A stretch of DNA of 64,000 nt, taken from Callorhinchus milii (Eukaryota). The DNA is taken from assembly GCF_018977255.1 (NCBI RefSeq), contig NW_024704743.1, forward strand, positions 15,130,001-15,194,000, written 5' to 3'. Positions 1,137 to 62,752 of the stretch are shown one piece after another (position 1 is the stretch's first letter; each line of letters begins with the position of its first letter). The position numbers were made by a program, and so were the translations under genes. The notes under the pieces were generated by a model. It saw only the letters and a program-made list of their open reading frames with translations, was not told where the DNA came from and did not search any database.

Positions 1137-1228
1137 TTTATTTGGGACCGATTAGCTTCAGGGTTTAAACACAAGAACTTTCGGACACGTGAAGGAGTTT
1201 GCCTCTGTCTCATTACTACGCTTTCCAA
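1137..1228 (+). CDS. CLASP2: CLASP2 internal coding exon (TOG1 C-terminal HEAT repeats), FIWDRLASGFKHKNFRTREGVCLCLITTLS(N)
   Basis: Polypyrimidine tract + ttccag acceptor, AA|gtaagt donor; 92 nt, phase 0 to 2. Peptide matches the CLASP family; LASGFKHKNF and EGVCLCL are CLASP2-type. Confidence 0.93.
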
Positions 1229-2747: not shown

Positions 2748-2823
2748 TTATGGAGCACAGCCATTAACATTAAGCAAAATTGTACCACATATATGCAACT
2801 TATTAGGAGATCCAAATAGTCAG
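2748..2823 (+). CDS. CLASP2: CLASP2 internal coding exon, (N)YGAQPLTLSKIVPHICNLLGDPNSQ
   Basis: tttacag acceptor, CAG|gtaagt donor; 76 nt, phase 2 to 0, in frame with the previous exon. Confidence 0.95.
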
Positions 2824-6809: not shown

Positions 6810-6907
6810 GTAAGGGATACAGCCATGAATACCATGGTGGAGATTTATCGTCATGTAGGCGAGAAAGTACGATCTGACCTCAGCAAAAAGGGGATTCCTC
6901 AAGCGCG
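6810..6907 (+). CDS. CLASP2: CLASP2 internal coding exon, VRDTAMNTMVEIYRHVGEKVRSDLSKKGIPQA(R)
   Basis: ttttcacag acceptor, CG|gtaagt donor; 98 nt, phase 0 to 2; conserved VEIYRHVGEKVR. Confidence 0.95.
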
Positions 6908-8979: not shown

Positions 8980-9557
8980 AAAAATAGAAGTCGCTGAGAA
9001 CACTCAGCATGAGTCACCATTTCGGGTCCACGACCCTTAAGTCAGAACTGGGGCATGTTGGGAGGGAGAGGCTTTTAAGGGCTAACAGAGAGGGGGGAGG
9101 CAGGGCAAGGAAGACAAAGGAGAAAATGGGGTAGAGAACAGGGGATGATGGGTTAAAGAGGTATTAATAATGCAAAACAAAGTGTGGGGGGGGTTGCAAC
9201 AAAATAGGCAGACCAGAGAGAAAAGGTATTTCTGGAACCAAGATGATGTGATAATGGTCGCAGAAGAGGGGAAGGGGAAAGGTAAGCTGTTACGGTCTGC
9301 AATTGTTGAAATCAATATTGAGGGCTGTAAGGACCTTAGCAGATAAATGAGGTGCTGTTCCTCGAGCTTGCACTGTGGCTCATTGGAACAGCGTAGGAAA
9401 CCGTGGATGGAGAGGTCAGAGTGCGAGTGGGAGGGAGAGTTGAAATGGCAAGAAACCGGAAGTTCGGCGTTGTGCTTGCGGACAGAACGGAGGTGTTCAG
9501 CAAAATTGGTCACCTGATCTGCATTTTGTCTCCCCAGTGTAGAGGAGATCACATTGT
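8980..9557 (-). mobile_element. Penelope-like element 3' fragment (GIY-YIG C-terminus + terminal region)
   Basis: FAEHLRSVRKHNAELPVSCHFNS...KLEEQHLIYLLRSLQP; highly similar to 60045-60662 in the opposite orientation. Confidence 0.8.
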
Positions 9558-9878
9558 GGAGTCCTGTAGCTCAGTGGTTAGAGCACTCGCTTTGCAAGCG
9601 AGAGACCTGAGTTCATTTCCAGGCAGGTCAGGGCGAAACCTTGGGCAAGTTTCCTTACTCCACACGCCTAATAATAATCCCTCCAAAAACAAAACAATAA
9701 TAAATTGGTCATTTTTAATCTACGACTGTTTGTGGGACATTGCTGTGCGCAATTGGCTGCCGCGTTCGCCCACAAATATACAGTCAATTCACTTTACAGT
9801 GTGTTCTGTGAAGCGCTTTCGGACGTCCTTCCGACATGAAAAGCGCTATATCAAATGCAAGGATTATTATTATTATTA
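9558..9878 (+). mobile_element. Full-length tRNA(Ala-like)-derived SINE, short subfamily; other copies at 32255-32580 (-), 33832-34146 (+), 10865-11118 (+, 5'-truncated)
   Basis: A box tagctcagtggttagagc, anticodon arm ctcgc-tttgcaa-gcgag (TGC), B-box-like gttca, Deu-like 3' core, L2-derived tail and (TTA)n. Confidence 0.9.
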
Positions 9879-17190: not shown

Positions 17191-17261
17191 ATTACAGACA
17201 TTATTTGCAAGATTTGATGAAGTGCACAGGTCTGGAAACATGATATTGAGTTTCAGCCTTG
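17191..17261 (+). CDS. CLASP2: CLASP2 internal coding exon, (R)LQTLFARFDEVHRSGNMILSFSL
   Basis: ttgcttttag acceptor, G|gtaagt donor; 71 nt, phase 2 to 1; FxxFDEV and SGxMILS motifs. Confidence 0.93.
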
Positions 17262-21074: not shown

Positions 21075-21587
21075 ATGGCCATGGATGATGGTGAGTAGCA
21101 ACAAAAAAAATCTTTCTTTAATGTTCAAGACAGTAATATTCAAGGATAGCTGCTCTGTACTCTGCTCCTTTTTTGTGTAGAGCTATTGTACATAGTGGGG
21201 AAAGGGGAAGAAGAAAGAGTGATTGTTATGGTTTCTTTTGTAGCCAGATTATGTTCACTATAGACAGAAATCTAATCTGTAACAGCTCTAAGTGTTATTG
21301 AGTTTTCCTTTTGTTTACTGATTCAGATGGCTGTTTTGACAATGGAACGCAATGTTTTTTTTCAAAATGTTCTCAGGCAGGATTTTATATTTTGAAAAGT
21401 TACTAGCTTGGTTTGCTTTATTCAAATTCAGTTGGTACAGAGGCTGGTCTTGTGTTGTGGTGGTTTCCTTAAGAGTCTCTCTGTCACAATCATGTCATCA
21501 AGGAATAGAAATAAGAAGTGTTCTGTATGTCGTATGAAACCGTTTATTAGAAATTTGGAAAATCTTTGTCTACCACTGCCAAATCGG
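20668..21587 (+). repeat. ~140-bp direct duplication (20668-20809 and 21447-21587) flanking the gamma-like exon
   Basis: gtcttgtgttgtggtggtt.ccttaagagtctctctgtc...cactgccaaatcgg in both copies. Confidence 0.9.
21075..21090 (+). CDS. CLASP2: Alternative start exon, coding part MAMDD(D); CLASP2-gamma-like N-terminus
   Basis: gaatATGGCCATGGATGATG|gtgagt: strong Kozak contexts and a phase-1 donor. Joining to 47337 gives MAMDDDKSFDDEESVDG; recalled mammalian CLASP2-gamma begins MAMGDDKSFDDEESVDG. Confidence 0.85.
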
Positions 21588-41096: not shown

Positions 41097-42670
41097 CTAC
41101 ATAAGAAATGCTAGACAAAAAAGAGACCAAGGTCCATCTAGTTCGCCTTCCACCTTCCTGGCCGTTGCATGCACATGTGTCTCAAACTACCTGTGCACTA
41201 TACTCCATAATATTATTTCCTAAAGAAAACTATCTAATCTGTGTTTGAAGGAATCAACATTTCCTGCTTCAAACTTTTCCCTAGGGAGCCTGTTCCACAG
41301 GTTTACTATTCACTCACTGAAATAGTATTTCTGTAAACTCATTCTGAATTTACTCCCCTTCAATCTCAGGCCATGTCCTCTGGTTTTACTATTCCGGACT
41401 AGTTGAAACAGCCTGTCATGATCTACATTGTCTAGTCCCTTTAGAATCTTAAAGCAGCAATCATATCGCCTCTCAATCTTCTCTTTTCCAGGGTGAGCAT
41501 GCCTAATTTACTGAGTCGCTCCTCATTGCCCAGTCCCTCCATTCCCTCAACCGTCTGGTAGCCCTTCTCTGTAAGCTCTCAATTTCTCCCATTTCCTTTT
41601 TGTACTGCGGCGACCAGAATTGTACACAGTACTCTTAAGTACCTTTGCACCAATGATTTATACAGTGGCAGGATTACCCCACTATTTTGGCTTGCTTTTT
41701 TTGATACTATATATATACATATATATATATTTTGATATATATACATATATAATATATTTTTGATACATATATATATTTGATACATCACAACATCTGGTTT
41801 GGTTTATTCACTGCCTTCAATTTATGGTCAATCAATCCTTTTCATTTTCCATACATATTATTTTCCTTCCGTTCAAATAATAGTCCCTTCCTGGATTTTT
41901 TGGTTCCCCATGTGAAGTACTTTATATTTTTCCATATTGAATTTCATCTGCCACCTGTCTGCCCAATTCCCAAGTATGTTCAAATCCTGTAACCTATCTT
42001 GTTCAGCTTTGCAATCGACCACATTCATTAGCTTGGTGTCATCTGCAAACTTAGCTACTGTGCTTGTGATTCCTAGTTCCAGATCATTTATAAAAATATT
42101 AAACAAAAGAGGTCACAAAACCCTTGTGGAACTCCACTGGTAACATTTTCCCAATCTGATGACATTCCCTGTACCACCACCCTCTGGGTTCTTCTGGTCA
42201 ATCAGTTATGTATCCATTCTAATATCCCGACCCAACTGTCCAGAGCCTTGGGACGTCCTCCCGACGTGAAAGGCGCTCTATAAATAAAATCTTGTTGTTG
42301 TAATATATTTCCACTGATTCCTGGTTTATTTACTTTCAATACCAGTTTCTCAAGAGTAACTGTATCAAAGGCCTTACTGAAATCTAAATATACGCATCCA
42401 CAGCCTTACCCTTGTCAAGCTTTCTTGTCACACTGTCAAAGAAAACAGTAAATTAGATTGGCAAGACCTACCCTTCATGAACCCATATTGGCTATCATTT
42501 ATGATTTTATTTCTGTCCAGGTGCTCTGTGATTTTATCCTTAATAAGAGTCTCTGTAATTTTACCCACAATGGGTGTCAAACACACTGGTCTGTAGTTTC
42601 CTGGGTCACGTTTGTTACTTTTCTTAAAAATAGGAATAACATCTGCCTTTCTCCAGTCCCCCAGCACCTC
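41097..42670 (-). mobile_element. CR1 LINE RT/3' region, interrupted by an AT-rich microsatellite (~41705-41776) and an L2 tail (~42230-42300)
   Basis: DWRKADVIPIFKK, DPGNYRPVCLT, FNIFINDL, KFADDTKL, WQMKFNMEKYKVLHMG. Confidence 0.9.
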
Positions 42671-46199: not shown

Positions 46200-46902
46200 G
46201 CACAAATGGGCCTCACCCTGTTGGTTGACATTTATTAATTGAATTTGAGCTCCAGCAGTAATGAATACAGAGCACAGACTTAGGCAGATATGTAAGGCCA
46301 GCTGTACAGTAAACTAGCAATTAAAATATCTCTTTGAGACGTGCGAGACAGTAATATCCTGCTTTGTGTATCATGCAGTGTTTATCTGTTGGGCAAAATG
46401 AATAACTGCTGCCGGTTTGATGCAGGAAATGAAGGATACACCACTGCTCGGAGTCATTCAATTGTCAATTATTGGAGAAAAAATAGCTGTGTAACTGATA
46501 CACACAAAAGGAAGTAGAATGTAGAGAAACATATAGCTTCTGCACTTTTTGATGTGATTGTTGGATTCTGTTGCAGATACGCAAGGTTTGGTTGGTAAAA
46601 TCTGTAATAAAGGGTTGCGGGTGTGCAGGAAAACAGGATTTATATGCATGAGAAATTCTCACCTCCTCTCCAGGACTGACTGTATAGGATGATGTCACCT
46701 TCCAGCTGATTGGCTGCTGAGAATCGAGTGAAGGGAGAAAGGGTAAAGATGCCGCACAAGCCTCAGTGCTGTCTGTATTCACCGAGTATATTTTTAGATG
46801 GGGACTTACATTGATTATTATTATCGGAAATTAACTGCACTTGGCCATGTGATCTATTGGGATGCTCTTACATGAAAAGAATTGAAGGCTTTAAAAGAAG
46901 GA
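46200..46902 (+). promoter_or_regulatory. Putative internal promoter/5' UTR region of the beta-like isoform
   Basis: No recognisable TE directly upstream of the MRRLICKRIC exon; position inferred from the exon, TSS unknown. Confidence 0.4.
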
Positions 46903-46936
46903 ATGAGACGGTTGATTTGCAAGAGGATCTGTGCCT
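46903..46936 (+). CDS. CLASP2: Alternative start exon, coding part MRRLICKRICA(Y); CLASP2-beta-like N-terminus
   Basis: ATGAGACGGTTGATTTGCAAGAGGATCTGTGCCT|gtaagt; phase 1. Joining to 47337 gives MRRLICKRICAYKSFDD; recalled mammalian CLASP2-beta begins MRRLICKRICDYKSFDD. Confidence 0.88.
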
Positions 46937-47336
46937 GTAAGTTGCACAATCTGGGTGGAAAAGACAGAGAGCTGGTGACACAAAGTGGGAGGCTGTGTAG
47001 GCTGGAGCGCATACAAAAACAGCAGAAACAACAAGGATTTGCCTCATAAGTGCATTTTGGCATTTAAAAAAGGATTGAAATGTCAATATAACAGACTTGA
47101 ATGCAGATTTACACCAATCTCAGTTGAAGTGCTTAGTATATAGGACGAAAAAGGCTAGATTAATGCTGCTTCATCAGGGTGGGTATATTTTCATGTTATA
47201 CAGTCACACTGGTCACGGAGAAAGAAATCATAGTAATGGATATTGATTTTTCTTTCACCAAGGTGACTTGGACATACTGGATATTTTAAATTGTCTGTAC
47301 CTTCATAAAACAAAAACATTTTGTCTTTTTTTAAAG

Positions 47337-47477
47337 ATAAAAGCTTCGATGATGAAGAGTCTGTGGATGGAAGCAAATCATCAGCTAGTTCTTCATTTAA
47401 GGTACCAGCCACGAAGAAAATGGGAAGTACAAACACTGGTGGCAAGAGATCAGCCTCAGCACACGGATCAAAATCAG
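47337..47477 (+). CDS. CLASP2: CLASP2 coding exon common to all three isoforms, (D)KSFDDEESVDGSKSSASSSFKVPATKKMGSTNTGGKRSASAHGSKS(G)
   Basis: T-rich tract + aaag acceptor, G|gtattg donor; 141 nt, phase 1 to 1; KSFDDEESVDG and FKVPA are CLASP2-type motifs. Confidence 0.95.
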
Positions 47478-56854: not shown

Positions 56855-58730
56855 AACTCTGGAACGCTCTCCCTCAATCCCTTGCCCCCTCTCCCCTTTT
56901 TCAAGTCCCGCCTGAAAACCTTCCTCTTTGACTGTGCTTACGGCCACCTCCCCTCTCCATCGCCCTCCCCGACTCGGAGTCAGGTTATACCACTGTTAAG
57001 CGCTCCGAGACGCTAACCTGCGTGGAGGGTGCTATATGAATGCAAGTTGTTATTGTCGTATTGTTTTTGTTTAAAATGCAACAATAGCTGCAGTATGGCA
57101 CTTTTTCAATATACGACTAAAATACCAAAGTACATTCCAATTTTAAGTGATAAAGCACTGAGGCTGATTTGAGCTAAACTTGTACTTGCATGTAAAAAAA
57201 AATCCAGATGCTGTTAATGTTGTAATTTAGTAATGGTTAACATGTGCTGTTCAGATTTAATAAAGACTACCTTTGTTTTTGTATAAATGGAGACATTTCA
57301 GTGCCTATTCAGCTGATTTGTAATATCAAGTTAAATCTGAAGAACTGTTTGTTTGTTAACACAATATTCCACTGTTCCAAGCAAAATACTCTTATCAATT
57401 TAGGAAGCATTTCTGTGAGGAAATTAACAGCATTATTTATAATCATGTTCAATAGATTGACAATTTAAAATGTTTCGGAAACTGGTTAGCAGACTTATAT
57501 CAATGCTTAATTTAGAATCATTAGAAATTACAACATATAAATAGACAACAACGGCAAGAACTTGGATTTATATAGCGCCCTCCACACCGGACGGCGTCTC
57601 AGAGCGCTTTACAGTAACGGATCCCGGGGCCGAGCCAGGGGGAGGGTGGGGATGGTGACCAAAGGCGTGGTCAAAGAGAAAGGTCTTCAGCAGAGACCTG
57701 AAAATGGGAAGGGAGGGAGCGAGACGAAGGGAGTGAGGAAGGCAGTTTCAGAGCCTCGGGACATAGTGGCCGAAGGCACGGCCGCCGAGGGTGGAGCGGA
57801 GACAAGGAGGAGGCCAGACCCAGAGGAATGAAGGCAATGGGTACTGTTTTGAGGAGAGAGGAGTTCAGAGAGGTCGGGGGTTGCAGAAGAGTGCAGGGAC
57901 TTGAATACAAGGGTGAGGATCTTGAAATTGATCCTCTCTGGGATAGGCAGCCAGTGCAGTCTGGCAAGGACTGGGGTGATCAGGGAGCAGAGTTTCGTGC
58001 AGGGGAGAATGCGGGCGGAAGAGTTTTGAATGATTTAGATTTTATGGATGGTAGTGGATGGGAGACCGGCAAGAAGGACGTTAGAGTAGTCCAGCCGAGA
58101 GGTGACAAAGGCATGGACCAGAGTTTCAGCGGCTTTTGGGGAGAGGTATTAGTGGAGACGGACAATGCGTCAGAGGTAGAAGAAAGTGGTGCTGGTGAAG
58201 GATCAGATGTGGGGTAGAAAGGATAATTGGGGGTTGAACCTGACGCCTGGGTTGCAGACGGGTTTGGAGAGATTTAGGGGAGGTCGGGTAGGTGGAGGAG
58301 GTGAGAACCGTAAGATTTTAGACGTTGATGAGAGCCAAAGAGTATGGCTTCCGTCTTGTCAACATTCAGCTGAAGGAAGTTTGCGCTCATCCAGCCCCTG
58401 AGATCTGACAGGCAGACTGACAGAACATCAGGGGACTGGGAGTCGCAAAGAGAGGTGGAAAAATAGAGTTGGGTGTTGTCTGCATACATGTGGAAATGTA
58501 CCCCATGTCTGTGGATGACATCCCCAAGAGGAAGCATGTAGATCAGAAAGAGGAGGGGGCCAAGGATGGATCCTTGGGGTACCCCACAGGTGACCGGGTG
58601 AGAGCGGGAGGAGAAGCCGTTTGTGCAGATGTACTGCTGGTGGTTTGTGAGGTAGGACTCGAACCAGGCTGTAAGAATCCACTGAGGTGGATGACGGAGG
58701 AAAGACCCTTTGTCTGTTCACACCAATGCT
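56855..58730. mobile_element. Second L2 subfamily: short 3' end (56855-57060, +) and ~1.2-kb copy (57545-58730, -)
   Basis: PQGSILGPLLF, HMYADNTQLY, WMSANFLQLN; distinct tail agcgctctgagacgc...gtggagggcgct. Confidence 0.85.
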
Positions 58731-59553: not shown

Positions 59554-59599
59554 AGTGTGCATTTGAGCAATGAAGTGATATCAGGAAGTGATATCAATG

Positions 59600-60662
59600 G
59601 CAACCTGACGACCCGGAGGACAACCATCATTTGGCCGCCCTATTTCCCGCACCACTACCCTCACGCCTTCGCCCTCTTCCCAGAACCATAATAGGGTCCC
59701 CCTAATCCTCACTTTCCACCCCACTAGCCTCAAAATCCAAAAAATAATTCTCTGCCATTTGCGGCACCTCCAGCGTGATCCAACCACTAAGCGTATCTTT
59801 CCCTCCCCTTCCCTCTCAGCGTTCCGAAGGGACCGTTCCCTCTGTGACTCCCTGGTTCATTCCTCCATCACCACCAAAAGTTCTTCTCCTCCCCGGGACT
59901 TTCCCATGCCAGCGTAAGAGATGCAATACCTGCCCTTTCACCTCTCATACCACTGTCCAGAGCCCCAAACATAGATTTCAAGTGAGACAGTGATTTACGT
60001 GTACTACCATCAATGTATTTTACTGCATTCGCTGCTCACGATGTGATCTCCTCTACACTGGGGAGATAAAATGCAGATCAGGTGACCGATTTGCTGAACA
60101 CCTCCGTTCTGTCCGGAAGCACAACCCCGAACTTCTGGTTTCTTGCCACTTCAACTCTGACCTCTCCATCCACGGTTTCCTACGCTGTTCCAATGAGCCA
60201 CAGTGCAAGCTCGAGGAACAGCACCTCATTTATCTGCTAAGGTCCTTACAGCCCTCAATATTGATTTCAACAATTTCAGACCATAACAGCTCACCTTCCC
60301 CCTCCCCCTCTTCTGTGACCATTATCACATCATCTTGGTCCCAGACACATCTTTTTCTCTCTCTGGTCTGCCTATTTTGTTGCAATCTTTATCCCCCTTT
60401 GTTCTGCAGTATTAACACCTCTTTTCCCCTGCTTTGTTGCAATCCCCCCATTTGTTTTGAATTATTAACCCTTTAATCCATCATCCCCTGTCTTCTACCT
60501 CATTTTCTCCTTTGTCTTCCTTGCCCTGCCTGCCCCCAGCCCTTAAAAGACTCTCCCTCCCAACAGACCCCAATTCTGACGAAGAGTTATGGCCCTGAAA
60601 TGTTGACTCACTTTCCTTTCTTCATAGATGCTGTCTGACCTTCTGAGCATTCCTAACAACTT
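59600..60662 (+). mobile_element. Penelope-like element 3' ~1 kb (GIY-YIG endonuclease region + terminal region)
   Basis: PLILTFHP, GTFPCQRKRCNTCP, FTCTTINVFYCIRCSRCDLLYTGE..RFAEHLRSV (with stops and frameshifts). Confidence 0.85.
60571..60610 (+). ncRNA. Minimal hammerhead-ribozyme-like motif in the PLE terminal region (sister copy 9011-9050, -)
   Basis: CTGACGA-agagttatggccct-GAAA-tgttgac; sister copy CTGACTTA-AGGGTC-gtg-GACCC-GAAA. Confidence 0.55.
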
Positions 60663-62681: not shown

Positions 62682-62752
62682 GGGCATCAAAAGATGGAGC
62701 AGTGGATGAAGATGATTTCACAAGAGCATTTGATGACGTGCCTACAGTACAG
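62682..62752 (+). CDS. CLASP2: CLASP2 coding exon, (G)ASKDGAVDEDDFTRAFDDVPTVQ
   Basis: ttaattcag acceptor, CAG|gtattt donor; 71 nt, phase 1 to 0; conserved GAVDEDDFxxAFxDVP motif preceding TOG2. Confidence 0.94.

Follow-up and report, generated by a model that had tools for sequence, protein, structure and literature searches.

The first coding exon of CLASP2-beta in Callorhinchus milii encodes a conserved two-cysteine tip that replaces TOG1 and is likely palmitoylated

The CLASP2 gene of Callorhinchus milii carries, within a 30-kb intron, a 34-nucleotide open stretch that runs from an ATG directly to a splice donor. This arrangement raises the question of whether so short a stretch can serve as the start of a CLASP2 isoform, and what its N-terminus would do for a microtubule stabiliser. 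The window analysed here is the whole stretch of 64,000 nucleotides that contains this intron. We consider it likely that the stretch is the first coding exon of CLASP2-beta, in which TOG1 is replaced by a basic 12-residue tip whose two cysteines would be S-palmitoylated, thereby tethering the protein to membranes, probably in neurons. The features that define the beta start are as follows.

46903..46936, plus strand: first coding exon of CLASP2-beta, 11 codons plus one base, encoding Cys6 and Cys10, with a phase-1 donor; the start of XP_042188149.1 and XP_042188150.1.
46937..47336, plus strand: intron of the beta transcript, GT-AG, 400 nucleotides, defined by the splice sites in the window sequence.
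47337..47477, plus strand: first exon shared by every CLASP2 isoform; its sequence matches C. milii CLASP2 at 100% identity, and it is joined to 62682 in RNA.
62682..62752, plus strand: next common exon, the start of the TOG2 region, defined by the RNA junction, tblastn, splice sites and a structure match.

The preliminary description presented the exon as hidden in the intron and as one that automated annotation easily misses. Neither statement holds, since this is a real and known exon that is already annotated in this genome. Two NCBI models, XP_042188149.1 and XP_042188150.1 (CLASP2 isoforms X14 and X15), both open with it, isoforms X1 through X13 have the alpha N-terminus, and automated models from 10 other cartilaginous fishes contain the exon as well. 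The existence of the NCBI beta models would imply transcript support. Only a gamma-type exon in C. milii and a second proximal donor, both described below, are unannotated.

In the window sequence, the ATG occupies 46903-46905 and the 34 coding nucleotides end at 46936 with the donor CCT/GTAAGT (the slash marks the exon boundary), which faces the acceptor TTTTAAAG/ATA at 47337. The proposed ATG-to-donor stretch 400 nucleotides before the common exon is therefore present as described. The proposed in-frame splice also agrees with the models, since joining 46903-46936, 47337-47477 and 62682-62752 by their coordinates yields a translation equal to the first 70 residues of XP_042188149.1. CLASP2-beta is distinguished by a short alternative coding exon at its start whose frame continues into the first common exon, and this feature is thus found here. 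We take its two-cysteine peptide to be the one called 'beta' by Akhmanova et al. in 2001. Assignment to CLASP2 rather than CLASP1 is consistent with the best solved-structure matches, which include the CLASP2 chains 3woy, 3woz and 8whh.

The beta exon is one of several alternative starts that share a single intron, and the exons upstream of it were located as follows.

1137..1228, plus strand: CLASP2-alpha coding exon of the TOG1 region (tblastn of the alpha protein P0003, 100% identity; splice sites).
2748..2823, plus strand: CLASP2-alpha coding exon of the TOG1 region (tblastn of the alpha protein; splice sites).
6810..6907, plus strand: CLASP2-alpha coding exon of the TOG1 region (tblastn of the alpha protein; splice sites).
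17191..17261, plus strand: last alpha-specific exon, whose phase-1 donor opens the 30-kb intron of alternative first exons (tblastn; splice sites).
21075..21090, plus strand: candidate gamma-type first coding exon, MAMDD (five codons) plus one base, with the donor G/GTGAGT (pattern match).

The donors of the alpha, gamma-type and beta exons are all of phase 1, with 47337 as their common acceptor. The gamma-type pattern occurs once in the window, where 0.03 matches are expected by chance. Records of this type are known in other sharks and rays, and none of the C. milii models X1 through X15 uses 21075-21090. The fourth codon of the C. milii candidate encodes Asp, and that of other sharks and rays encodes Gly. 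The surrounding DNA is AT-rich, intronic and loaded with repeats, including LINE-like and short elements. Reverse transcriptase fragments of retrotransposons (Pfam RVT_1) lie at 58277-58717 and 41876-42112, both on the minus strand, and at many other intronic places. Related ORF fragments at 59581-60476 (plus strand) and 9082-9570 (minus strand), of which the one searched has no Pfam match, resemble the endonuclease region of Penelope-type retroelements.

Use of the beta exon removes TOG1 from the protein, as had been proposed. The TOG1-type Pfam family PF21041 matches residues 57-204 of the alpha protein and is missing from the beta protein XP_042188149.1. The beta protein retains the Pfam family CLASP_N, and its solved-structure matches at residues 64-311, 622-853 and 1020-1252 indicate that the later TOG domains are kept.

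Protein records establish that the tip is conserved among jawed vertebrates. Among 362 proteins, 29 records representing 11 cartilaginous fishes contain the 12 residues unchanged, so that the orthologous exon sought in other chondrichthyans exists, with an identical peptide, in 10 further species. In 25 of these records the peptide is N-terminal (nine species: C. milii, Leucoraja erinacea, Hemitrygon akajei, Mobula hypostoma, Pristis pectinata, Scyliorhinus canicula, S. torazame, Stegostoma tigrinum and Chiloscyllium punctatum). The other four, from Hypanus sabinus and Carcharodon carcharias, place a short extension before it. These extensions have no counterpart in C. milii, where the frame is closed by a stop 10 codons before the beta ATG. 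An out-of-frame ATG is found in C. milii 31 nucleotides before the beta start, and its ORF (46872-46940, plus strand) overlaps that start. At about this distance upstream, the models from Hypanus and Carcharodon carry an in-frame Met, and the presence of an ATG ahead of the start may thus be a conserved feature.

At least 114 amniote records, among the best 120 of 873 matches, differ from the C. milii tip by a single residue, Asp for Ala at position 11, and come from birds, a lizard, a turtle, platypus and rodents. This identity of 11 of the 12 residues supports orthology to the mammalian two-cysteine basic N-terminus and agrees with the one substitution in 12 residues noted at the outset. A representative search with 37 matches contributed tamarin and godwit records that keep Cys6 and Cys10, as well as a mudskipper record, the one teleost record for the tip, that keeps both cysteines along with Gln7 and Asp11. 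Cys6 and Cys10 are present in all beta-type records seen, and the shark, teleost and amniote records all agree at 10 of the first 12 positions. Because holocephalan, shark, ray, teleost and amniote records all carry the tip, parsimony favours an origin of the exon before the split between cartilaginous and bony fishes, as first suggested. Its presence in the last ancestor shared by cartilaginous and bony vertebrates is therefore well supported.

In the same representative search (37 matches, 10 of them named and no jawless fish among these), no CLASP1-like match carried a beta-type tip. Record P0188, whose source name is CLASP1, has downstream sequence of the CLASP2 type and was left out as a beta form of CLASP1. 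A degenerate pattern of the beta exon gave no matches in metagenome contigs. Outside subscription papers, no literature on the evolution of CLASP2-beta was found, and none of the literature found to name CLASP2-beta prints the tip peptide.

The composition of the tip points to membrane attachment. Residues 1-13 have a net charge of +5, and Cys6 and Cys10 are flanked by basic and hydrophobic residues, as in N-terminally S-palmitoylated proteins. Two cysteines among such residues at a free N-terminus are the usual layout of palmitoylated tips, for example those of GAP-43 and SCG10. An amphipathic helix is not supported for the tip, whose hydrophobic moment is unremarkable (64% of shuffled sequences score equally high). 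Akhmanova and colleagues reportedly noted a palmitoylation motif in CLASP2-beta in 2001.

Mammalian CLASP2-beta is described in PMC6373834 and PMC6035287, and the literature reports that it 'appears to be membrane-bound'. The region assigned to mouse CLASP2-beta was amplified from neural tissues (PMC4054870), and the portions of PMC10404969 and PMC2171674 consulted contain nothing further on the beta tip. In the mouse synaptic palmitoylome (PMC8230572), the 28 of 44 Clasp2 places covered include C226, C533 and C1175, whereas peptides from the N-terminus are absent. Two of these three positions in that portion of the dataset are one residue off the numbering of a rodent beta record, and therefore the entry searched was probably the beta form. 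The N-terminal tryptic peptides of that form, at 4-5 residues, are probably too short for detection by mass spectrometry.

If the palmitoylated-tip reading is correct, an internal promoter near 46.7 kb would drive the beta transcript, and the basic +5 tip would bind acidic membranes weakly, and DHHC enzymes would acylate Cys6 and Cys10. CLASP2 would then be retained at Golgi, vesicle or growth-cone membranes and be activated there by partners. Expression of the C. milii form would probably be enriched in brain, as with mammalian CLASP2-beta. PMC6035287 proposes that the beta and gamma isoforms depend on partners of the CLIP-interacting domain for optimal activity, and that isoforms lacking TOG1 are auto-inhibited until a partner engages this domain. 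The protein encoded here might likewise remain auto-inhibited as long as no partner has bound its C-terminal CLIP-interacting domain. The predicted outcome is suppression of catastrophes that is both localised to membranes and gated by partners.

The exon could also be real while its cysteines serve another role, such as binding a partner protein, coordinating a metal or forming a disulphide, with the basic residues or partners accounting for membrane association. Invariance at 10 of 12 positions exceeds what a lipid anchor normally requires and suggests recognition by a protein, although recognition by DHHC enzymes could account for such constraint. Moreover, no passage that directly demonstrates acylation of Cys6 or Cys10 was found in the literature outside subscription papers. 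Both the reported membrane association of the beta form and the typical layout of its N-terminus argue in the other direction, and we regard a non-palmitate role for the cysteines as improbable.

A different challenge to the palmitoylated-tip reading concerns how often the beta donor is used. Contigs from four runs (X1 through X4, none of them recorded as RNA and none labelled by tissue) were aligned to 18.5 kb of repeat-rich DNA, and these alignments add the following features.

46712..46902, plus strand: probable 5' leader preceding the beta coding stretch (contigs start at 46712 in run X4 and at 46728 in run X1).
46395..46742, plus strand: candidate non-coding upstream exon with the donor AGG/GTAAAG at 46742 (putative, from the run X1 contig 46395-46741).
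47145..47178, plus strand: conserved sequence leading up to a second phase-1 donor, AGG/GTGGGT (match to a catshark model; end of a run X1 contig).

The junction 47477>62682 is present in three of the four runs (X1, X2 and X3), which therefore contain spliced RNA. The junction 46936>47337 is not among the 15 of 671 joints listed (repeats crowd the tables, and 32 of 42,577 pieces are listed). Contigs that continue unspliced across the beta donor were recovered from run X1 (46728-47177, depth 34), run X2 (46559-46976) and run X4 (46712-46985), and the beta donor is therefore often unused in those samples. The leader contains five upstream ATGs, each of which reaches a stop.

Two run X1 contigs end one base before AGG/GT donors, at 46742 and 47178, and both carry 28 loose letters. 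On the assumption of a word length of 31, and with the loose letters of a minus-strand contig at its right end, an assembly spliced to 47337 is expected to show exactly this number (27 exon letters plus an ambiguous G). From the contig ends and the loose-letter count, we infer the splices 46742>47337 and 47178>47337. The 46395-46742 exon has no in-frame ATG, and the first available would be at 47420 in the common exon; the shark and ray models P0288, P0329 and P0330 start at a Met matching 47420.

The in-frame ATG for the 47178 donor is at 47163, and the catshark model XP_038665828.1 (isoform X28) starts six codons earlier, at a position that is ACG in C. milii (47145). The two stretches agree at 8 of 11 residues, compared with 5 of 11 at best in 100 resamples of the intron. 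No second record with the N-terminus of catshark X28 was found among the best 120 of 127 matches to a query made up mostly of common-exon words. This N-terminus is thus known from one database record, and its protein may be incidental. The best-scoring proximal donor is AAG/GTGACT (47263), which follows a short phase-0 ATG frame (47236-47262, plus strand) that is out of frame with the common exon.

These data could be taken to mean that most proximal transcripts in C. milii skip the beta donor in favour of 47178 (or 46742), such that the beta ATG mainly opens a 48-codon upstream ORF and the beta protein is rare. The three readthrough contigs, the deep contig that stops at 47178 with the expected loose letters, the conservation of the second donor region in catshark, and the stop at 47049 that the beta frame meets when read through are all consistent with this proposal. 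However, the runs are unlabelled for tissue, rare forms are lost from contigs, and few of the joints are listed. Furthermore, the NCBI models X1 through X15 include the beta form and none with 47178, and the near-invariance of the peptide indicates selection on the protein. We therefore judge this explanation very unlikely, and it may in any case hold in non-neural tissue together with a membrane-attached tip.

The layout of the exon by itself offers little proof, since the 30-kb intron contains nine in-phase ATG-to-donor mini-exons with equal or better donor scores, among which the gamma-type candidate scores highest. The beta donor lacks the exonic AG consensus, but its donor-matrix score still places it within the top 2.9% of GT sites. 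When the whole window was searched in six frames, the beta peptide agreed with the N-terminus of a rodent CLASP2 in 10 of 11 residues and at a single place; the next best place reached 5 of 11, and the best across five shuffled windows reached 6 of 11. A chance mini-exon is effectively ruled out by this match and by the identical peptide in 10 other cartilaginous fishes.

A broader proposal, which we advance only tentatively and think somewhat unlikely, is that splicing of the proximal first exon forms a conserved three-way switch, which toggles a lipid anchor by tissue and has been kept since the split between chimaeras and sharks. If so, donor 46936 would yield the membrane-anchored beta protein, and donor 46742 would yield a non-coding leader. 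Donor 47178 would turn the beta start into the 48-codon upstream ORF and provide a fourth, undescribed N-terminus that is also encoded in catshark, perhaps from the near-cognate ACG.

These findings confirm that the alpha/beta/gamma first-exon layout of CLASP2 already existed in the jawed-vertebrate ancestor. A CLASP specialist would not be surprised, and the exon and its conservation are readable from public records. The very strong constraint on the beta tip is an argument for studying its acylation and function.

Compared with C. milii isoforms X14 and X15, which are predicted models without experimental characterisation, the exon and the spliced N-terminus are the same, with no difference over the first 70 residues. 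GAP-43, SCG10/stathmin-2 and PSD-95 also have a pair of cysteines close to the N-terminus, next to basic and hydrophobic residues. Acylation has been shown for those proteins, and CLASP2-beta is likened to them by sequence layout, with no claim of homology. CLASP2-gamma likewise begins with an alternative first exon that is short and lies within the same intron, and it has TOG1 removed, but its tip has no cysteines and its candidate exon lies 26 kb upstream of beta. Mammalian CLASP2-beta, as described in the passages of PMC6373834 and PMC6035287 cited above, lacks TOG1 as the C. milii protein does. The junction falls at the same point in the common exon, and 11 of the 12 tip residues equal those of the rodent, platypus and tamarin records, with position 11 being Ala rather than Asp in every cartilaginous-fish record seen.
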